From a virus: a DNA stretch of 52,545 nt. Location: positions 1 to 52,545 of the IMG/VR virus record IMGVR_UViG_3300010163_000045; one strand, given 5' to 3'. Shown here piece after piece: positions 18,301-26,637 of the stretch (positions are counted from its first letter, which is position 1; each line of letters starts with the position of its first letter). The notes beneath the pieces are model-generated. The model was not told the origin of the DNA. It was given only the letters and a program-made list of their open reading frames with translations, and ran no database searches. The position numbers and the translations under genes are program-made.

Positions 18301-19169
18301 AGAACATGAAGACGGCAGTAAGCAATACAATCAATAATTTGAAGACTGCAGTAACAAATACGTTCAATAACATTAAGTCCAGTCTGTGTAACATAACAGA
18401 TAATATCAAGAGCTCTGTATCGCAGACGTTCGAGAATTTGAAGACGGCTATGTCCAATGCAGTAAACAATGCCAAGCAGTTAGTAGTCAATGCAATGACC
18501 AACGCAAAGAATGGTGTTGTGAATGTTTGGAATGGAATCACCGATACGTTTGCCAGCATCGGTAGAAATATCATACAAGGTATTATCAATGGTATCGGTA
18601 GTATGGTATCCAGTCTATATGAAAGCATTAAGAGTGCATTGTCCGGATTGGTGGATAAGGCGAAGAGTGCTTTGGGTATCAATTCACCGTCCAGAGTGAT
18701 GCGGGATAAGATTGGTAAGTGGTTGCCGCCTGGTATTGCTGCCGGGTTTGAATCTGCAATGTCCAAAGCAACAAAGGATATGCAGAAGTCGTTGGATGAT
18801 GGCATTGATGACCTTGAGGCTGAGGACGTTAGTGTTGGTGTACAGAGTGATATGAGAGGAGCGATGACGTCAGTCGCCGAATACTTTGAATCGATTGAAG
18901 CAAGGTTGGCTGCTTCGGTAGCAAGCATGCGGAGTAATTTGGAATACTTGATAGCGGTTGGTACTGCTGTGGCAAATGGCACGCCAATTGGATATATCGG
19001 GTATGGTGGAGTGTTCAGAGGTGGCGATGTTAAAGATGACCCGGATACGCCCAATGGTGGCGGTGGCATAAGGAATTACAATTTCTATACCACCAAATCA
19101 ATTGATGAGATTGAGGCTGCTAAGCAAATGCAGAGGGCTGAACGGGATATGGCAGAAGGATTTGCATAA
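15315..19169 (+). CDS. Tail tape measure protein
   Basis: 1284 aa, the largest ORF, with a hydrophobic central segment. A long array of degenerate WNAIKTTVSTVVNAIKST-type repeats is present. Confidence 0.9.
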   Translation: MVKAVAVDVGSAVGYLDLDISGFLANLRTAQSEGEKASSNLVTKIGGGITNVGKSLSSVGTSLTKSVTTPLLGIGGVVIKTSADFESAMSKVQAISGATGADFDKLNAKAREMGAKTKFSASESAEAFQYMAMAGWDVDSMLGGISGVMNLAAASGEELGTVSDIVTDAMTAFGLSAKETSKVLKDGVEVEVDNTTRFVDALAAASNSSNTNVAMLGESFKYVAPVAGALGYSVEDVAVALGLMANQGIKSSMAGTSLRTMLTNMANPTDTMAAAMQTLGVSLQDDEGNMKSLMEVMQDLRKGFGGGKMDAAEFQKSIAEIDTAFQSGEMSEEEYEQAINDLCVAMYGAEGAQKAQLAAQLAGKQGMAGLLAIVNSTDEDFQNLTESIYNASGTSQEMADIMQNNLSGQLTILMSSLQELALQFGEILLPYVKQFVEWIQQLVIKFQGMDEEQKKQIVKWAAIAAAIGPVILVVGKVVTAFGSIITTFGKIPGMITKLKSGFGLLKAAIGGLSAPVVAIIAVIATLVAAFKHLWDTNEEFRNKITAIWDGIKQKFQDFAQGIVDRLNALGFDFENFTEVISAVWNEFCNLLAPVFEAAFQIISDVLGGVLDVLTGLFDIFAGLFTGNWEQCWNGVKEVFGGIWDAIVGIFTGVLDALKGVADVVLGWFGTSWDECWTSIKDFFVGIWEGIKSFFEGIVNGIKSFASNAWNAIKTTVTTVFSAISNFFSTIWNAIYTTVSNVVSNIYGFISSIFNTIRDTISSVMNTIWSTIQTVWNTIYNTIKSVLDTIWQTIKSIFDTIYNTIKSVLDTIWNTIQSVWNNILYAITLVVVGIQNVIQNIFGAIKDFLSGNVEECKNKLHTAWTTIKNLITELVNTIRNTINVVFEAIKNIITTIMNAIQTVITNIWNAIKTTVSTVVNAIKSTINTVWNAIKTIIQTVMNGIQTVITNVWNAIKNTVSTVVNAIKSTLETVWNAIKTTISNIVNGIKQTVSQTFENMKTAVSNTINNLKTAVTNTFNNIKSSLCNITDNIKSSVSQTFENLKTAMSNAVNNAKQLVVNAMTNAKNGVVNVWNGITDTFASIGRNIIQGIINGIGSMVSSLYESIKSALSGLVDKAKSALGINSPSRVMRDKIGKWLPPGIAAGFESAMSKATKDMQKSLDDGIDDLEAEDVSVGVQSDMRGAMTSVAEYFESIEARLAASVASMRSNLEYLIAVGTAVANGTPIGYIGYGGVFRGGDVKDDPDTPNGGGGIRNYNFYTTKSIDEIEAAKQMQRAERDMAEGFA

Positions 19170-19191: not shown

Positions 19192-20094
19192 ATGGTCGAA
19201 AATATAAAACTTTTGAATATGGCTACGAATGCATTATTGGAGCTGGATATGGTCACCACTCCATACTACATTCTGGAGTCAGCAACATGGGGAGAGGTTG
19301 AAGGAACGCATCACAGTTATAAATACGTCAATCAGATTGGTGTATACGTAACCGGTACCAGTTTAGGCACCAGGGACGTAGAAGTGGTCGGTTGGGTGAT
19401 AGCGGATACTGAAGGCCAAATGACGGACCGGAAAGCAATGTTAAATCGGTTCGTCAATCCACAGCAATTGATTGAGATGACGTACAGCAAGTACAAATTG
19501 AAGTTCCTACCAAATAAGTCAATCCAGTACAGTGCTAATTTGGTTGAGAACAACGAGGTGATGTGTAAGTTTAAGATAACCGGTATGGCAGCAGACCCGT
19601 TATTCAAGGATACCAATGATGATAAGGTGTCTGCTGCATCCACCAAAGCGTTGTTCCATTTCCCGCTGATAATCAATAAGACTACTCAGAACCCACCAAC
19701 AGTAGTGTTTGGTGTAAGAGAGCCGAGCTTGATTGTAAACGTGTTCAATTCTGGAGCAGTTGGCACCGGCATGAAGATTGTGTTCAAAGCATTGGGAACA
19801 TTGACCGGTCCGTCGCTGATAAATGTGTATACTCAGGATTATTTCAAGTTGAATAAAACTCTGTATGCAGGTGACGTGGTGGAGGTTTATACGACCATAG
19901 GAGAGAAGAAAGTGGTGGCAAAGATAAACGGTATTGAGACTAATTATTTCAGATATCGTGATTTAGACTCCACATGGCTCCAGTTGGACGTTGGTGACAA
20001 TCTGTTTCGGTATGATGCAGATGCAGGGATTGATAATCTGGAGGTATACATATACTTCTCGAATAAGTATTTGGAGGTTCAGGAATGTTATTAG
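19192..20094 (+). CDS. Distal tail protein (Dit)
   Basis: 300 aa directly after the tape measure. Confidence 0.65.
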   Translation: MVENIKLLNMATNALLELDMVTTPYYILESATWGEVEGTHHSYKYVNQIGVYVTGTSLGTRDVEVVGWVIADTEGQMTDRKAMLNRFVNPQQLIEMTYSKYKLKFLPNKSIQYSANLVENNEVMCKFKITGMAADPLFKDTNDDKVSAASTKALFHFPLIINKTTQNPPTVVFGVREPSLIVNVFNSGAVGTGMKIVFKALGTLTGPSLINVYTQDYFKLNKTLYAGDVVEVYTTIGEKKVVAKINGIETNYFRYRDLDSTWLQLDVGDNLFRYDADAGIDNLEVYIYFSNKYLEVQECY

Positions 20095-21233
20095 ACAAGA
20101 AGATTGAGATAACGATTTTCGAAATGAACGATACCACGTTCGAGCCTATTGGGCAGTTGGACGAGTATACGTCATTGATGTGGCCTGATGCATTCCTCGG
20201 CAAAGCGATGTTCCAGTTATGGGCACCGATAACCGATAGCAATGCAGAGAAGTTGAAGGCCGACAGAGTAATATGGTGTGGTGGTGAGAATGCTGCCATA
20301 ATCAAGATTGTAAAAGAGACGGTCAATGAGGATGGCGAGAAAGAGTTCAATGTAAAAGGTTGGACGCTGGAAATTTTGCTTGTTGACAAAATCGTTGAAG
20401 GGATGTATAATAAAAGTGGGAAGAATTTTACCAGTACGCTTATGTATGATATGGTGAACAAGTATGCCATCAATCCTACGAACCCGAAAAACAAGATACC
20501 GTATCTGGTTAATGCTGCAGACCAGCATCTCGGCAAGCAGGTGAATGGATACCAGAAGACTGGTGGCAGTTTGTATGATGTGCTTTATAGTAATGCATCT
20601 GCAGCAGATATTGGGTTTAGCGTACTGTTCGACCCGAGAGCAAAGAGGTTGGTATTTGAGGTGAGGTCAGGAGTAGACCACACACAAGAGCAAACGGAGA
20701 ATGAGCCGGTGGTATTCTCAACGGCATTGGAGGACGTGTTGTCCAGTTCATACTATCTGAATATTGAGGACGTCAAAAACGTGGCAATGGTTCAGGGTGA
20801 GGAAAAGAATGGGCAAAGGACTACGGTGTTCGTTGGTGATATAAATGCGGCCGGTATGGCAAGAAAAGTCCTTTACGTTGACGCAAGAGATTTGCAGTCT
20901 GAAATATATGATGATGCAGGCAACCCACATACGTTGACTGCTGCCCAGTATCAGGCAACATTGATTCAGCGTGGTGAGGAGAAGTTGGCGGAGCATCAGA
21001 AGACGGAAACATTTGAGGCACAGATACGTCAGTTTGGTGACGTACAGTATGAATTCGGTAAAGACTACCAAAAGGGAGACAAGGTGACCGTAGTTGATGA
21101 ACAGTTAGGGTTATCGGTATCCGCAAGAATAACAAGTGTGGAAGAAGATTTCGATGATGAGTATGCTCTGGTGTTGACGTTTGGTTACTCATATCCAACG
21201 TTGCTGCAAAGAGCAAGACGTTCATTCGGATAG
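20085..21233 (+). CDS. Tail hub / Gp37-like baseplate protein
   Basis: 382 aa following Dit. N-terminus is IEITIFEMNDTTFEPIGQLDEYTSLMWPDAFLGKAMFQLWAP. Confidence 0.5.
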   Translation: MLLDKKIEITIFEMNDTTFEPIGQLDEYTSLMWPDAFLGKAMFQLWAPITDSNAEKLKADRVIWCGGENAAIIKIVKETVNEDGEKEFNVKGWTLEILLVDKIVEGMYNKSGKNFTSTLMYDMVNKYAINPTNPKNKIPYLVNAADQHLGKQVNGYQKTGGSLYDVLYSNASAADIGFSVLFDPRAKRLVFEVRSGVDHTQEQTENEPVVFSTALEDVLSSSYYLNIEDVKNVAMVQGEEKNGQRTTVFVGDINAAGMARKVLYVDARDLQSEIYDDAGNPHTLTAAQYQATLIQRGEEKLAEHQKTETFEAQIRQFGDVQYEFGKDYQKGDKVTVVDEQLGLSVSARITSVEEDFDDEYALVLTFGYSYPTLLQRARRSFG

Positions 21234-21251: not shown

Positions 21252-22637
21252 ATGGCTCAGGAATGTGGATTTTTCAATGCCCAGTTGGTAGGCGAAGAAT
21301 ATGACCGAGTATATTTGGCAGAACAGTTTGCTGCATACTTCGCCAGTTTCATTGGTAATGGTATCTTTGGAAAGAGTATGCAGAAGTTGGAAGTGCTGGC
21401 CCAGACGTCACCAAATATGTCAATTAAGGTACTGTCTGGCGAAGCATGGATAAATGGATGGTGGTATCGGAATACCGAAGAGTATACGTTATCATTGGAC
21501 GTTGCAGATGGTGTACTGAATCGGATTGATGCAATCGTTCTGAGGTGGGGTAATCAGGAAAGGGATATGTGGCTGCAGGTAATCAAAGGAATAGCATCGA
21601 GCAGTCCGGTGGCTCCGGCAATCCGTAGGGATGCAGACTATTACGATTTGCAGTTAGCAACGGTGTCGATTGTTAAGGGTGCAATCAAGATAACCCAATC
21701 AGCAATCGACGATACCAGATTGGCAACAGCAAAGTGTGGTCTGGTTACTGGAGTAGTTGACCAGATTGATACCACAGGTCTGTATAACCAATTCGAGCAG
21801 TACTTTGCAGAGTTTAAGGTTACATACGAAAAGGACTATGCAGATTGGACGGCAGCTCAGAAAGCGGCATATATGGCATATATCAGCAATCAGCAGAAGC
21901 TGTATGAAGATTGGGTGCATCAGAAGCAAACCGATTACGATACGTGGACTGCAGATAAGATGGCAGAGTACATTGCATGGACGGCTGCTTCCAGAAAGAG
22001 CTATGAAGATTGGATTGCAGCTCAGGAAGACGAATTCATCAAGTGGATGCTGTCCAACAAAAATCTGTACGATACGTGGACTGCAGAGCAGAGGGCAAAC
22101 TACGAAGCGTGGGTTGCTGCATCCGAGAAAGATTATGATGACTGGACTGATGCCCAAAAAGAAGAATACCTGAAGTGGATTGCCAAACAGCAGTTGGATT
22201 TCAGGACGTGGTATGATAGCCACACGAAGACGTGGACAAAAGAGTTCGAAGATTGGTTTGCCAGTATCAAGGATAAATTCAGCAGTGATATTGCAGGCGC
22301 ATTGCAGTTGCAGATTGATGACCAGCAGAAGCTGATTGATAACCTTTATGATATGTTGTATGATGGTTGGCTGCGTTCTCCGGTTATGGGTACAGATGGA
22401 TACTACATAAAAGCATCTGACGGCTCATACCTGATGGGTATTCAGCCTACTACGAAAACTCTGCAGGCGCAGATAAAGGTCAATAGTATTGCAATCGGTA
22501 ACATCCTGGATATGTTGGTTAGCAAGCAGTTATTGGTGCCGGCAGTATCAAGCAATTCAGGTGAGTATATCCGAGGTACTGATGGTTCGTATCTGATGTT
22601 TACGGAACCGTTATGCAAATGTGAAAATGAAAATTGA
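21252..22637 (+). CDS. Tail fibre / baseplate protein with a Trp-rich repeat stalk
   Basis: 461 aa. N-terminus is GFFNAQLVGEEYDRVYLAEQFAAYFASFIGNGIFG. The centre carries DYxxWTxxQ-type repeats. Confidence 0.5.
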   Translation: MAQECGFFNAQLVGEEYDRVYLAEQFAAYFASFIGNGIFGKSMQKLEVLAQTSPNMSIKVLSGEAWINGWWYRNTEEYTLSLDVADGVLNRIDAIVLRWGNQERDMWLQVIKGIASSSPVAPAIRRDADYYDLQLATVSIVKGAIKITQSAIDDTRLATAKCGLVTGVVDQIDTTGLYNQFEQYFAEFKVTYEKDYADWTAAQKAAYMAYISNQQKLYEDWVHQKQTDYDTWTADKMAEYIAWTAASRKSYEDWIAAQEDEFIKWMLSNKNLYDTWTAEQRANYEAWVAASEKDYDDWTDAQKEEYLKWIAKQQLDFRTWYDSHTKTWTKEFEDWFASIKDKFSSDIAGALQLQIDDQQKLIDNLYDMLYDGWLRSPVMGTDGYYIKASDGSYLMGIQPTTKTLQAQIKVNSIAIGNILDMLVSKQLLVPAVSSNSGEYIRGTDGSYLMFTEPLCKCENEN

Positions 22638-22651
22638 AAGGAGAAAACAAA

Positions 22652-24199
22652 ATGGCAGGAGTAGTTGCTGGAGAGGGTAAGACGTTAAAAGATTATCCTC
22701 AGACGACAGAAGCAAACGCGAATGACCTTATCATGGTGGAGTCACCTACAGAGGGTACACGCGCAATGAAGTTTGGCGAGATTGCCGCCAATGTAGCGGA
22801 GCAGATGGCTGATACGCCCGAGTACGTTGCATTGAATAATCAGGCGCAGCAGGCTATCGATAGTGCCAATACGGCAGTTCAGACGGCCAACACTGCAGTG
22901 GAAAACCTGCAGCAGTATGACACCAGATTGGGCGAGATGGAAGATGCCCAGGATACATTGACCACTGCAATGGGTAATAAGCAGAACAAGGCTACCGACC
23001 CGAAAGAGTTGGGAGCTGGTTATCTGTACCAGCAGTCCGATGGTTCTGTGGTACTGACTGAGGCAAACCCGAAGTTCAAGTACACCATCATCGTGGATAA
23101 CGGAACAGACGGTACGGTCACGGCAGTTGAGTATGCAGATGATGCAGTCGGTATTACACCGGCGTCCGGAGCCAATTTGGGTGGATGGGCAAACACGGAG
23201 TTGCTGAAAGAATACTTCCGTCCTTGTGTAATCAAGAAGGGAGCTGATTCGCCGGCATATTTCCTGAACCCGAATAACCTGAAGAAGAAGTTGGATGATA
23301 CCGCATCGGTATTGACTGGAGCCGATGGTGACGTAATGGTTCAGGTCAAGAAGATGTATGGTAAGATTTCGAAGGTGGCTAATGGCAAGGTTGCAATTTC
23401 CATCAGTAACGTCCGCGAAGACGGTTCGTGGTTCTGTTGGAATGAGGTTGCAGGAGTGGAGAAAGAGTATCGGTATCGTGGTCGTTATATGGCTGGTTTT
23501 GCTACCGGTGATGAAACCATGATGCGTTCGATTTCTGGAGTACCGAAGACGGTCAACAAGACCAGGGCGGCGTTCAGGACTTTGGCAACAGCAATGGGGC
23601 CTCAGTATTGCCAGAATGATATCTATATGATTTTCTTATGGCAGTTCATGTACCTGCTGATGTATAAGAACCGGAACAGCCAGAGCGCTTTGGGACAGGG
23701 CAGGTCGCTGAGTTCCAATACCGCAAATGTGAACACTGGGTGGTCCGATAACTATGGCTGCTGCTTTGGTGACCAGGGTGGTGTCAATGGTGTGGTATTC
23801 CTCTGGGTTGAGGATTTCTATGCTGATACATGGGAATGGGCAGACGGCGTATGTTATGTGAACAATGTTTACAAGTTGACCCGTGACCCGTCCAAGTATA
23901 ATGATACTGGAGCCGGTTATGAGATTGAGCTGGCGTCTGGAATGACTGCAGCCAATAACAACGATAAGTATATCACCAAGTTGGCAATGACCAATGATGT
24001 TCCGTTCTTACCGGTTGGCTCCGGTGGAAGCTCGGCAACGTTCTGGTGTGATAACGTTTGGGTGGCTGATGCTACTCAGGTCGTTAGATTCGGCGGCGCT
24101 TGGGCTTATGCGGCTAAGGCGGGCGCGTTCTGCTGGTATCTGGCTTATACGGCTTCGGATGCGAATTCGAGTATCGGCTCGCGTCTGTGTCGAAATTAA
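22652..24199 (+). CDS. Distal tail fibre / receptor-binding protein, DGR target
   Basis: ATG 22652 follows AGGAG (ORF open from 22634). C-terminus ...FWCDNVWVADATQVVRFGGAWAYAAKAGAFCWYLAYTASDANSSIGSRLCRN contains the VR. Confidence 0.85.
   Translation: MAGVVAGEGKTLKDYPQTTEANANDLIMVESPTEGTRAMKFGEIAANVAEQMADTPEYVALNNQAQQAIDSANTAVQTANTAVENLQQYDTRLGEMEDAQDTLTTAMGNKQNKATDPKELGAGYLYQQSDGSVVLTEANPKFKYTIIVDNGTDGTVTAVEYADDAVGITPASGANLGGWANTELLKEYFRPCVIKKGADSPAYFLNPNNLKKKLDDTASVLTGADGDVMVQVKKMYGKISKVANGKVAISISNVREDGSWFCWNEVAGVEKEYRYRGRYMAGFATGDETMMRSISGVPKTVNKTRAAFRTLATAMGPQYCQNDIYMIFLWQFMYLLMYKNRNSQSALGQGRSLSSNTANVNTGWSDNYGCCFGDQGGVNGVVFLWVEDFYADTWEWADGVCYVNNVYKLTRDPSKYNDTGAGYEIELASGMTAANNNDKYITKLAMTNDVPFLPVGSGGSSATFWCDNVWVADATQVVRFGGAWAYAAKAGAFCWYLAYTASDANSSIGSRLCRN
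24080..24188 (+). repeat. DGR variable repeat (VR)
   Basis: 109-bp ungapped alignment with 24287..24395. It has 22 mismatches, and every one lies opposite a TR adenine. Confidence 0.9.
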
Positions 24200-24286
24200 A
24201 TTTGTAACAAACATAGGTATGGAAAATCATAGGGCGACCCATGATAGTGGATTGGATGTTTGGATTTGAAAAAAATTCATTAAGAA

Positions 24287-24395
24287 GTCGTTAAATTCAG
24301 CAGCAATTGGAATAATGCAGCTAAAGCAGGCACGTTCTACTGGAATCTGAATAATACAGCTTCGAATGCGAATTCGAATATCAGCTCACGTCTGT
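24287..24395 (+). repeat. DGR template repeat (TR)
   Basis: Noncoding copy of the VR. It is adenine-rich, with nine in-frame AAT triplets. Lies between the target gene and the RT. Confidence 0.9.
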
Positions 24396-24615
24396 TATGT
24401 GTGATAATAAAGGAGCCAGTTATCAGATAAGCTCCGCAATTATATCATGGGCGTCCGTGCCTGACCTATACTGTGCTGCTACCATGAAGGAAGATGGTAG
24501 TCAGGTGGGCAAAATATTGTTGAAAAGCTGTCTTAGTAAGTGCTCATACGAGATAAGGTGAGACGAAAGGTTGGCAAACTAAACACACAAGATTAAGCGC
24601 AGGCTACTATAAGGA

Positions 24616-25719
24616 ATGGAGAGCCGGACTAAGGTGAAAAGAGCGAGTGGATTGTTCGAGCAGGTCTACGATATCGACAATTTGGTATTAGCTCACAAGA
24701 ATGCCCGCAAAAGCAAAACGTTTTACACCGAAGTTCAGATGGTGGACAGTAACCCAGGTAAATATCTGTATGAGTTGCAAGATGCTATAAAGAATCATAC
24801 GTACCGGACATCTGAGTATGAAGTGTTTGAAAAGTTCGATGGCAATAAGGTACGGGAGATATACAAGTTGCCTTATTATCCTGATAGGGTATTCCAGTGG
24901 GCTTTGATTCAAGTTATCGAACCGTACTTGCTAAAGAATTTGACTGATGACACGTACAGTGCATTGCCGGGACGAGGGACGTACAAGGCTTACAAGAAGT
25001 TGAAAAAGGCACTGAGGGTTGATGCAGTTGGTACTCAGTGGTGCCTGAAGATAGATATATCCAAATATTATCCGAGTATCGACAAACAGATACTGAAGGA
25101 TAAGTATGCAAGGCTGTTCAAGGATAAGGATTTGCTGGAATTGATTTACGAATTGATTGATAGCACGTCTGGACCTACCGGAGTGCCGATTGGCAATTAT
25201 TTCAGTCAGTACTCCGGTAATTTTTATCTGAGCGCCTTTGACCACAAAGTAAAAGAGGAATGGCACGTCAAACATTATTTCCGGTATATGGATGATATGG
25301 TGTTCCTTGCAGAAACCAAAGAAGAGTTACAACAGTTGATAAACAAGATAATTCCGTATATGCGTAACGAGCTGCATCTGACGGTGAAGTCTAACTGGAG
25401 CATTTTCAGGGTTGAAGACAGAGGTATTGATTTTGTTGGCTATGTATTCCGTCATGGTAATATAAGGCTGAGGAAACGTATCACTGGAACGTTGAGGAAA
25501 ACCAGTATGGCAATCAAACGTCGTGTTAATAAAGGAATGCTGATAAACTATCATATGTACTGTTCAATCAATAGCATGTGTGGTTGGCTCCAGCATTGCA
25601 ATGGTGACGGCTTGAAGATGAAGTACGTAGACGTAATATGGGAGCATGTTGAAGAGTATCACGACGAAGTAATCGTAAAGATGAAAAGGAGGGAAAAGGA
25701 CAATGCAAAAGCTGCATGA
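24616..25719 (+). CDS. DGR reverse transcriptase
   Basis: 367 aa with FRYMDDMVFL (YxDD) and IGNYFSQYSGNFYL (the DGR-type I/LGxxxSQ motif). Alternative GTG start at 24634. Confidence 0.9.
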   Translation: MESRTKVKRASGLFEQVYDIDNLVLAHKNARKSKTFYTEVQMVDSNPGKYLYELQDAIKNHTYRTSEYEVFEKFDGNKVREIYKLPYYPDRVFQWALIQVIEPYLLKNLTDDTYSALPGRGTYKAYKKLKKALRVDAVGTQWCLKIDISKYYPSIDKQILKDKYARLFKDKDLLELIYELIDSTSGPTGVPIGNYFSQYSGNFYLSAFDHKVKEEWHVKHYFRYMDDMVFLAETKEELQQLINKIIPYMRNELHLTVKSNWSIFRVEDRGIDFVGYVFRHGNIRLRKRITGTLRKTSMAIKRRVNKGMLINYHMYCSINSMCGWLQHCNGDGLKMKYVDVIWEHVEEYHDEVIVKMKRREKDNAKAA

Positions 25720-25972
25720 TATTATCTATGATGCAAAGCCGGCTACTGTGACGGTATATGATACCTCAGTTATGGTGGTTACGGCTTGCACAGAGGTTGA
25801 GGTGACCGATGAAATGTCTGGAGCAACTTCGACCAAATGGAAGTGTGAAGTAGACCAGTATACCAATGCTGAGTATATCGAAACGTTGCAGGCAAGGATG
25901 GATAATACCGAGAATCAGGCGCTGCAGGCAATGGTCGGCTTGACTGAGGTGTACGAGATGATGTTAGGATAA
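25703..25972 (+). CDS. Hypothetical protein (tail-fibre accessory position)
   Basis: 89 aa with SD AGGAGGG. Acidic, so not Avd-like. Confidence 0.55.
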   Translation: MQKLHDIIYDAKPATVTVYDTSVMVVTACTEVEVTDEMSGATSTKWKCEVDQYTNAEYIETLQARMDNTENQALQAMVGLTEVYEMMLG

Positions 25973-25985
25973 GGAGGGACAAAAG

Positions 25986-26126
25986 ATGGCTGCAGTATAT
26001 GCAAACCTTATTATTAAGGGCATCAAGCAGATTGAGCAGGTGCCTGAGGTAATACGCGAGGAGGTCAAGAACATTTTGGCTGAGCGTGGTTACCCGGAGT
26101 TGGCAGGTGGTGAAAATGCTGTGTAG
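25986..26126 (+). CDS. Small conserved protein, paralogue 1
   Basis: 46 aa reading MAAVYANLIIKGIKQIEQVPEVIREEVKNIL. Follows AAGGAGGG. Too short for the ORF track. Confidence 0.55.
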   Translation: MAAVYANLIIKGIKQIEQVPEVIREEVKNILAERGYPELAGGENAV

Positions 26127-26175
26127 TATCCGGCTTTTCATATTAAGAGTTTTGTTACGAAAGGAGGAACAAACG

Positions 26176-26307
26176 ATGGCTGAGGTTTATGCTACGCTGA
26201 TTATTAAGGGCGTGAAGACGTATGCTCAGGTTCCGGCGGTTATCAAGCCGAAAGTGAAAGCTGTGCTTGAAGCTCTGGAGCTCGGTGAGCTGGCTACAGA
26301 AGAGTAA
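26176..26307 (+). CDS. Small conserved protein, paralogue 2
   Basis: 43 aa reading MAEVYATLIIKGVKTYAQVPAVIKPKVKAVL. Follows AAGGAGG. Confidence 0.55.
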   Translation: MAEVYATLIIKGVKTYAQVPAVIKPKVKAVLEALELGELATEE

Positions 26308-26325
26308 GATTCAGGAGGAACCGGT

Positions 26326-26637
26326 ATGAGTGAAGATTTTATCTCACGGCCTGAACACGAAGAGTTCGTCAAGAGGATGGACGAGGCGAATGAACGCCAG
26401 AGTAAGCGCATCAGTATTCTTGAGGACACAGTCCGCAATTTTGCTCAGGTGCAGGCATCAATGCAAAAGATGGAAACAATCATGGACTCTACTTTGAAAG
26501 AGATTGAGAAGCAGGGTAAACGGTTGGAGAGCCTTGAGGCAAAAGATGGAGAAATGTGGCGCAAAGTAGTGGGGTATATCGTCACGGCTATTGTAGGCAT
26601 TGTGATAGGCTTCGTGTTCAAGCAATTAGGAATGTAG
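26326..26637 (+). CDS. XhlA-like coiled-coil protein with a C-terminal membrane anchor (lysis accessory)
   Basis: 103 aa with an N-terminal coiled coil and a C-terminal TM (VVGYIVTAIVGIVIGFVF). Occupies the canonical post-fibre lysis position. Confidence 0.5.
   Translation: MSEDFISRPEHEEFVKRMDEANERQSKRISILEDTVRNFAQVQASMQKMETIMDSTLKEIEKQGKRLESLEAKDGEMWRKVVGYIVTAIVGIVIGFVFKQLGM

Follow-up and report, generated by a model that had tools for sequence, protein, structure and literature searches.

The DNA examined here is the IMG/VR virus record IMGVR_UViG_3300010163_000045, a sequence of 52,545 nucleotides that is analysed over its full length (hereafter, the window). Its subject is a locus at which the gene for a 515-residue tail protein is followed by a short repeat of its own 3′ end and then by a gene for reverse transcriptase (RT; Table 1). 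The repeat pair and the RT very probably constitute a functional diversity-generating retroelement (DGR), a system in which a template repeat (TR) is copied, with errors at adenines, into a variable repeat (VR) of a target gene. The layout is target gene with VR, then TR, then RT, and the accessory gene avd is not part of it.

Table 1. Features of the retroelement, followed by other features of the window (positions are those of the whole window)
Feature	Coordinates	Strand	Description
DGR target gene	22652..24199	+	515-aa tail protein, VR at C-terminal end
VR (variable repeat)	24080..24188	+	109-bp ungapped match to TR
Constant G+C-rich VR 3′ end and adjoining sequence	24174..24199	+	putative counterpart of IMH (initiation of mutagenic homing)
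Bulged hairpin	24226..24245	+	ATCATAGGG-CGA-CCCATGAT; VR–TR spacer, DNA fold of 24170-24290
TR (template repeat)	24287..24395	+	invariant master copy, 35 adenines, nine in-frame AAT codons
TR–RT spacer	24396..24615	+	220 nt; presumed non-coding part of DGR RNA; conserved core 24448-24590
DGR-type RT	24616..25719	+	367 aa, Pfam RVT_1 at 6e-16
89-aa acidic open reading frame	25703..25972	+	overlaps RT stop, pI 4.1
Tape measure protein (TMP)	15315-19169		tail module
Dit	19192-20094		tail module
Sipho_Gp37/Tal-like protein	20085-21233		tail module, 3′ of Dit
461-aa structural protein	21252-22637	+	directly upstream of DGR target gene
XhlA/holin-like gene	26326-26637		downstream of RT region
Window	1-52,545		IMG/VR record IMGVR_UViG_3300010163_000045; virus DNA, one strand

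In a base-by-base recount, the ungapped alignment of VR and TR contains 87 matches and 22 mismatches, and the TR base is A at all 22 mismatches. VR has G at 16 of these positions, C at three and T at three, and 13 of the 35 TR adenines are kept as A in VR. The probability that 22 mismatches would all land on the 35 adenine positions by chance is 2.4e-14 (hypergeometric). The pair is the top-ranked family in a repeat search of the window, and a scan at the TR non-adenine positions detected no third TR-like copy on either strand of the window; the window thus holds just two TR-matching copies, and the DGR therefore has a single target. The homology stops at 24189/24396, with a G in VR opposite a T in TR, and can be extended 5′ by two bases, to 24078/24285, giving one further A mismatch. 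Position 24080 is the first base of a codon in the open reading frame (ORF) whose stop codon is 24197-24199, and VR, which encodes VVRFGGAWAYAAKAGAFCWYLAYTASDANSSIGSRLCRN, therefore lies within the last 40 codons of the target gene, stop included. TR lies outside any ORF of the target frame, 207 bp downstream of VR, with the RT gene 220 bp further on; when TR is read in the register of the target gene, exactly nine AAT codons appear. The initial annotation of this stretch, made from its letters, had described the same ungapped 109-bp alignment, its 22 mismatches falling on TR adenines, about 35 adenines and nine in-frame AAT triplets in TR, an end of homology at 24189/24396, an RT with YMDD and IGNYFSQ beginning at 24616 and a VR encoding GGAW...FCW...R; all these details agree with what was found in the recount, in the RT ORF and in the translation.

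The RT ORF carries the IGNYFSQ and YMDD motifs, corresponding to the [I/L/V]GxxxSQ motif-4 signature and the catalytic YxDD motif of DGR RTs. Among solved structures, the highest-ranking match, at E = 1.6e-24 over residues 8-302, is chain 8ub7_A, the product of the brt gene of Bordetella phage BPP-1 (100% identity to AY029185). In the alignment with this enzyme (bRT), IGNYFSQ pairs with IGSLTSQ and YMDD with YMDD, whereas retron-type and group II intron RTs appear in the same PDB search at 6.6e-13 or weaker; the placement of the protein among DGR RTs is based on this ranking of solved relatives. The protein also matches PHROG 1423 ‘reverse transcriptase’ at 1e-106, and an identical RT protein is encoded on four other contigs. 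Annotated phage RTs in GenBank, from crAssphage LMMB, Lactobacillus phage LBR48 and Faecalibacterium and Bacteroides phages, are 35-47% identical to it; crAssphage LMMB and LBR48 are presumably DGR carriers. An RT of a group II intron, a retron or a defence system (Drt/Abi) was ruled out by NCBIfam scores that are all far under the cut-offs (group II, 103 against 300; Drt3a, 59 against 200; retron St85, 45 against 235) and by an Rfam scan of 23800-26000 that gave no intron or retron RNA and nothing at all at E <= 1. The start of the RT is ambiguous: gene callers choose ATG 24616, while homologues start at GTG 24634, for which a GGAG lies at 24618-24621, and the true start may be GTG 24634.

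The ATG of the target gene is preceded by an AAAGGAG Shine-Dalgarno sequence and agrees with the 515-residue gene calls on related contigs. The protein matches PHROG 5302 ‘tail protein’ at 1.8e-62, and searches of Pfam and of PDB sequences gave no domain and no match, nor was sequence similarity to Mtd, the tail protein diversified in BPP-1, detectable. An AlphaFold2 (AF2) model built with 84 homologues has a mean pLDDT (predicted local distance difference test) of 89.3, reaching 96-98 from residue 140 onward, and predicts an N-terminal coiled coil, then a beta domain and, at the C-terminus, a domain of C-type-lectin fold in which VR is located. When this model was compared with the PDB by Foldseek, all three matches at E <= 0.001 were chains of the Thermus aquaticus variable protein TaqVP (5vf4; 1.7e-7 to 3.1e-7, the best with probability 1.0), followed in the ranking by five Mtd variants (1yu0-4), with TvpA of Treponema (2y3c) at rank 11 (E = 0.13). 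Among predicted viral structures in BFVD, the model matches tail collar fibre proteins at 3.4e-37. VR is thus situated at the 3′ end of a coding gene, within a predicted C-type-lectin-fold variable domain, as is usual for DGR targets, whose variable domains are of C-type-lectin or Ig-like type. From the gene order, the PHROG assignment and the fold, we infer that the protein is the distal tail fibre or receptor-binding protein of this phage.

Several lines of evidence from natural populations point to ongoing diversification of VR. Exact-protein look-ups in Logan/ENA assemblies provided the population sample, independent assemblies being used instead of read mapping; exact 45-mer searches with TR in IMG/VR and JGI metagenome contigs gave no match. 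The target protein falls in a 90%-identity cluster of 54 members, and ten distinct VRs, each adjoining TR, were recovered from phage copies of other samples. TR is identical in eight of the 11 related contigs, and the other three have a single G/A change (G at 24299 in contigs L128 and L132, A at 24376 in L081). Variation between phage copies spans VR positions 24086-24173: 29 columns vary among the ten VRs, 27 of them on TR adenines (P = 2.8e-16), and the 74 non-adenine columns are essentially invariant. One of the two exceptions, column 24169, is A in the VR of L081, and the TR of the same contig carries the G-to-A change at 24376. As this TR change is mirrored at VR 24169, a TR marker has been copied to VR, and L081 is a natural marker of the direction of transfer from TR to VR. 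Nucleotide diversity is 0.149 in VR, 0.006 in TR and 0.041 in the rest of the target–RT region, such that the assemblies reveal the population signature of a DGR, namely, an invariant TR beside a VR that is hypervariable at TR adenines.

The same restriction is apparent in the protein sequences. Fourteen protein variants share the scaffold VV.FGG.W..AA.AGAFCW.L...AS.A.S..GSRL; a single residue among them is out of reach of adenine substitutions, and 12 of the 13 columns with at least three residue types are within VR residues 479-507. Comparison of closely related contigs from different sequencing runs gives the clearest picture. L125 and L131 have 21 differences in 5,225 nt, of which 19 are in VR, and L125 and L126 have 17, of which 12 are in VR; these near-clonal genomes therefore differ at 2-5 positions outside VR in 5.2 kb and at 12-19 positions in VR, all of the latter at TR-adenine sites. 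Because near-clonal genomes differ almost solely in VR, the element has recently been working in natural populations, and the DGR is active in nature. The initial annotation had regarded the element as apparently functional, a view that the ten VRs on one near-invariant TR and the near-clonal genomes now substantiate. It had also proposed a TR/VR-aware scan, a test of whether polymorphism is confined to TR-adenine positions, a comparison of the C-terminus with known C-type-lectin folds and a placement of the RT, and each of these came out as it had anticipated: the window has no second such pair, and this one is mismatched at TR adenines alone, variable columns lie on TR adenines, with assemblies standing in for reads, the model has TaqVP, Mtd and TvpA as its top PDB matches, and BPP-1 bRT is the best solved relative of the RT.

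The layout of the element is shared by a wide family. Loci were scanned around 80 RT relatives in IMG/VR (36-64% identity) and on four contigs of the same phage, 84 in all, together with 40 loci of bacterial genomes. Adenine-specific TR/VR pairs were found in 70 of the 84 loci and in 27 of the 40 bacterial loci, some of the latter with TR after RT; thus, RT and an adenine-specific repeat are associated in 97 of the 124 scanned loci. In the 70 loci the order is constant: VR ends a long ORF (mostly 450-800 residues), TR follows 50-210 bp after VR, and RT usually begins 100-290 bp after TR. Layouts of this kind have been described as architecture A1, an avd-less TR–RT arrangement that comprises 75 of 372 DGRs (Wu et al., 2018; PMC5758913). 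The A1 DGRs resemble the present locus in the order of target, TR and RT and in having no recognisable accessory gene.

The RT gene is directly followed by an 89-residue acidic ORF, which recurs at this place in relatives with RTs as little as about 41% identical. Searches of Pfam, PDB profiles, GenBank phages (tblastn) and Foldseek gave no match for it, and five homologues were found in a large protein index. In its AF2 model (pLDDT 80), a long helix comes after a beta sheet. The fold of Avd is a helical bundle, which the predicted sheet-plus-helix arrangement does not resemble. The CH1 accessory protein of some DGRs is, like this ORF, acidic, and is longer, at 160-169 residues (Wu et al., 2018; PMC5758913). 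The ORF may encode a DGR accessory factor; just as well, it could be one of the ordinary genes in a conserved tail-lysis module that these phages share whole.

Candidate cis elements are present at the repeat ends and in the two spacers. The VR 3′ end, TCGGCTCGCGTCTGT, is invariant in the ten VRs. Two differences, at 24176 and 24181 (G in VR, A in TR), are all that set it apart from the TR end, TCAGCTCACGTCTGT; the sequences that follow are unrelated. By analogy with BPP-1, the constant segment and the TR 3′ end would form an IMH/IMH* pair, IMH being the start site of cDNA integration. In the spacer between VR and TR, the bulged hairpin is weak (segment z-score -0.74) and is kept only in the closest relatives, and it is doubtful that it is an analogue of the stem-loop downstream of VR in BPP-1. 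In the TR–RT spacer, the blocks GGGCAAAA, GCTGTCTTAGTA, CGAAAGGTTGGC and CACACA are kept in loci with 61-64% RT identity. RNAalifold predicts two helices in the spacer, with compensatory changes in 12 of 26 pairs in an alignment of only five sequences. Among 74 sources, just these five training sequences were recovered when a covariance model of the spacer core was used, and the RNA fold of 24270-24620, covering TR and spacer, is no better than shuffles (z = -0.63). A structured spacer RNA is therefore plausible from the alignment. A 54-codon ORF at 24397-24561 within the spacer has no family match and is probably not a gene.

Comparison with the BPP-1 DGR (mtd-avd-TR-brt) brings out both common and divergent features. 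Both elements are phage-borne, have a tail-protein target with VR in the last ~40 codons, a variable domain of C-type-lectin fold (predicted here, with Foldseek matches to Mtd) and adenine-only differences between TR and VR, and encode homologous RTs in which IGxxxSQ and YMDD are aligned. In both, the VR 3′ end is constant, G+C-rich and slightly unlike the TR end. By contrast, BPP-1 has avd, whereas here TR is the next element after the target gene; AAC codons are diversified in BPP-1 and AAT codons here; a G+C-rich stem-loop follows VR in BPP-1, whereas no convincing one is seen here. Moreover, RT identity is low, sequence similarity between the targets is not detectable, and the spacer RNA of the present element has no detectable similarity to families described in Rfam. 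TaqVP (5VF4) and TvpA (2Y3C) are likewise DGR variable proteins of C-type-lectin fold, the match to TvpA being weak, but they are cellular proteins with 12-14% identity to the present target, which has a predicted N-terminal coiled coil and beta domain of phage-fibre type.

In the mechanism that would account for these features, TR and its putatively structured spacer are presumably co-transcribed with the RT gene, the transcription unit and the mode of priming both being assumed. RT would copy the TR RNA, misincorporating opposite template adenines, and the mutagenised cDNA would replace the homologous VR in the 3′-terminal part of the gene for the tail protein. TR would be left untouched because its 3′ end differs from that of VR. 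About 13 codons (nine AAT, two AAA, ACA and ATC) would be re-randomised on the ligand-binding face of the C-type-lectin-fold domain, while the scaffold residues FGG.W, AGAFCW and GSRLCRN would be retained. The most likely outcome is that the phage changes or regains host-receptor binding.

A number of observations weigh against this reading of the locus and should be considered together. Avd is essential in the BPP-1 paradigm. Here, neither Avd nor another known accessory gene was found by Pfam searches of the neighbouring genes and of 46 small ORFs of the window or by NCBIfam searches, and the gap between VR and TR leaves no coding room for avd. A search for hairpins across relatives gave no conserved perfect stem, so that a convincing stem-loop after VR is lacking, and a scan for promoters and terminators around TR detected none. 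The second exception to the constancy of non-adenine VR columns, a lone C-to-T change at column 24111 in contig L130, is not of a kind that adenine mutagenesis produces. In addition, the VR diversity described above is that of consensus assemblies of different samples, not of reads within a population, which limits conclusions on rates and timing, and no experiment or close characterised homologue ties the target protein to adsorption. As to the stem-loop, the G+C-rich structure downstream of VR is not universal according to the literature. As to Avd, one DGR lineage without avd (‘Lineage 3’) has been described and Avd-independent retrohoming suggested, and avd-less DGRs account for 29% of one survey (Wu et al., 2018; PMC5758913); lack of Avd is thus no bar to DGR membership, an accessory protein (Avd, HRDC, MSL or CH1) being typical of the class without being universal. 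It departs from the BPP-1 paradigm, yet is already documented and so is not new.

The alternative that survives best concerns the target. The DGR could be active and yet diversify a protein that is not the receptor-binding protein, one whose ligand is a different one, for example mucus or glycans, or whose role is not in adsorption. C-type-lectin-fold DGR targets of cellular genomes have many other roles, and the 461-residue protein or the Tal-like protein encoded upstream could bind the receptor instead. This is nevertheless improbable, given that the target gene is the final gene of the tail module, that its product is a PHROG ‘tail protein’ with a structural match to tail collar fibres, and that the solved phage precedent, Mtd, is named a tropism determinant in PDB entries 1yu0-4.

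Far less probable is a fossil element, in which the TR/VR pair and the RT would be relics and VR would now be frozen in this phage. One genome alone cannot separate past from present activity, and contig L130, with its frameshifted RT, indicates that inactive copies may exist; on the other hand, the RT ORF of the window is intact and its product is kept unchanged on four other contigs, near-clonal genomes differ in VR at TR-adenine sites exclusively, and the TR mutation of L081 has been propagated to VR. Contig L130 (ERR3199584) deserves separate mention. The loss of one nucleotide from a run of A shifts its RT frame at about residue 28 (L130:4440-4700, corresponding to about 24700 of the window). 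Its VR alone keeps TAC, encoding Tyr, in place of the conserved Cys codon, and no other VR contains a non-adenine change. The frameshift could reflect either a dead RT or an assembly error.

An ordinary diverged duplication of the gene 3′ end, with VR variation due to mutation, recombination and selection and with an unrelated RT (retron, group II intron or defence), has next to no probability and is already refuted: tail-fibre tips are often hypervariable without a DGR, and upstream of VR the target gene does vary between lineages in the ordinary way (in 23851-23959, diversity reaches 0.125), but restriction to TR adenines (P = 2e-14 and 3e-16) is impossible by ordinary mutation, TR is non-coding and yet near-invariant while 74 non-adenine VR columns are essentially constant, the RT is far closer to bRT than to retron-type or group II intron RTs, and its association with such repeats recurs across the family.

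Within the active DGR favoured here, the TR adenines fall into two classes. Among the ten VRs, TR adenines that adjoin another adenine (in AAT and AAA codons) are read as A in 105 cases, G in 73, T in 34 and C in 28, whereas isolated adenines are read as A in 12, G in 96, T in one and C in one. At nine positions, G is present in nine or all ten of the VRs, and at seven of these in all ten. The sites outside AAT and AAA codons at which almost every VR has G are 24092, 24095, 24112, 24118, 24121, 24125, 24132, 24151, 24176 and 24181. At four silent third-codon sites, G is found in 40 of 40 cases, with a lower 95% bound of 0.93 for G per event. The same tendency is seen in the IMG/VR relatives (loci L003-L124), in which, of 84 cases of a four-fold-degenerate site with A in TR, 80 are G, four are A and none is C or T. 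In a wider set of 105 unique VRs and 62 TRs from the scanned RT relatives, isolated adenines followed by G are read as G in 88% and A in 11%, isolated adenines followed by C as G in 69% and A in 28%, and adenines adjoining another adenine as G in 30% and A in 42%.

In BPP-1, template G read by bRT just before an adenine biases toward dC, giving A-to-G changes, and the spectrum is broader in AAC contexts (bioRxiv 10.1101/2025.03.24.644984; 10.1101/2025.08.18.670894). The direction of the bias seen here, from AG to GG, fits bRT, but the near-100% frequency does not. As published error rates of bRT are near 30%, and lower in the AG context (bioRxiv 10.1101/2025.03.24.644984; 10.1101/2025.08.18.670894), near-complete conversion to G at neutral sites needs another cause. 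Possible causes include a property of the RT clade, a G.T mismatch-repair ratchet at cDNA integration and selection at the nucleotide level. Two of the nine positions with G in nine or ten VRs, 24176 and 24181, may simply belong to an IMH that is not transferred. TR itself shows G/A polymorphism at sites of this kind, as at 24299 and 24376. Editing of the always-G adenines from A to I by a TadA-like enzyme, which has a UACG motif, was considered and dropped because most of the sites are CAG, and the context of the next base was rejected as a full explanation because four-fold sites before T or A are also ~90% G. That the avd-less RT clade itself reads TR adenines in two ways, with the 89-residue ORF possibly replacing Avd, is a tentative proposal and at present an unlikely one.

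The window carries an exact 115-bp direct repeat at its two ends (1-115 and 52431-52545) and is therefore a circularly closed, complete phage genome of ~52.4 kb. The genome encodes terminase, portal, major head and tail tube proteins, DNA polymerase and primase, and the phage is a siphophage. The gene order around the element is TMP, Dit, Tal-like protein, 461-residue protein, target gene, TR, RT, small genes and the XhlA/holin-like gene; the target gene is thus the last of the TMP–Dit–Tal tail module and precedes the holin-like genes. Repeats that contain tryptophan (...DW.AAQ...Y..W...) form a run in the centre of the 461-residue protein, and the ‘head protein’ label of this protein in PHROGs is probably a wrong annotation because the gene sits in the tail module. 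Downstream of the RT region and ahead of the XhlA/holin-like gene, a tandem duplication (25971-26053 and 26161-26243, 75% identity over 83 nt) yields two paralogous small genes of PHROG 1382, the ORFs 25986-26126 (46 residues) and 26161-26307 (48 residues). An endolysin/amidase-like ORF of 495 residues (1795-3282, + strand; PHROG 20388 at 2e-116) is located between the large terminase and portal genes, distant from the holin-like genes at ~26.3 kb.

Megablast of positions 22000-26500 of the window gave no DNA-level match among GenBank phages, in which the best RT identity is 46%. The nearest RT relative in IMG/VR is on an uncultured contig (64% identity), and the nearest in cellular genomes are in a Ruminococcus metagenome-assembled genome (61%) and in Lachnospiraceae isolates (46%). 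Judging from these cellular relatives, the phage probably infects Clostridia of the gut.

The DGR class has very many catalogued members, and gut-phage DGRs acting on genes of the tail-fibre type are on record in the literature; with both this target type and the avd-less layout well documented, the present element is a clear new instance of a system that is already well known. The sole leads that might go beyond the textbook picture are the two-class pattern of TR adenines and the conserved ORF after RT. For studies of DGRs, the locus and its relatives provide a natural data set of ten VRs on one TR and of 105 VR/TR pairs from 62 TRs, and a further well-documented example of retrohoming without Avd, which leaves the concept of a DGR unchanged. 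For the phage, whose lineage, probably on gut Clostridia, occurs in several human or animal sample sets, twelve AAT, AAA and ATC codons would allow protein variants on the order of 10^13 or more by our own arithmetic. The tip of the last tail protein is re-randomised in nature, and this is the likely basis of shifts in host range or receptor use.

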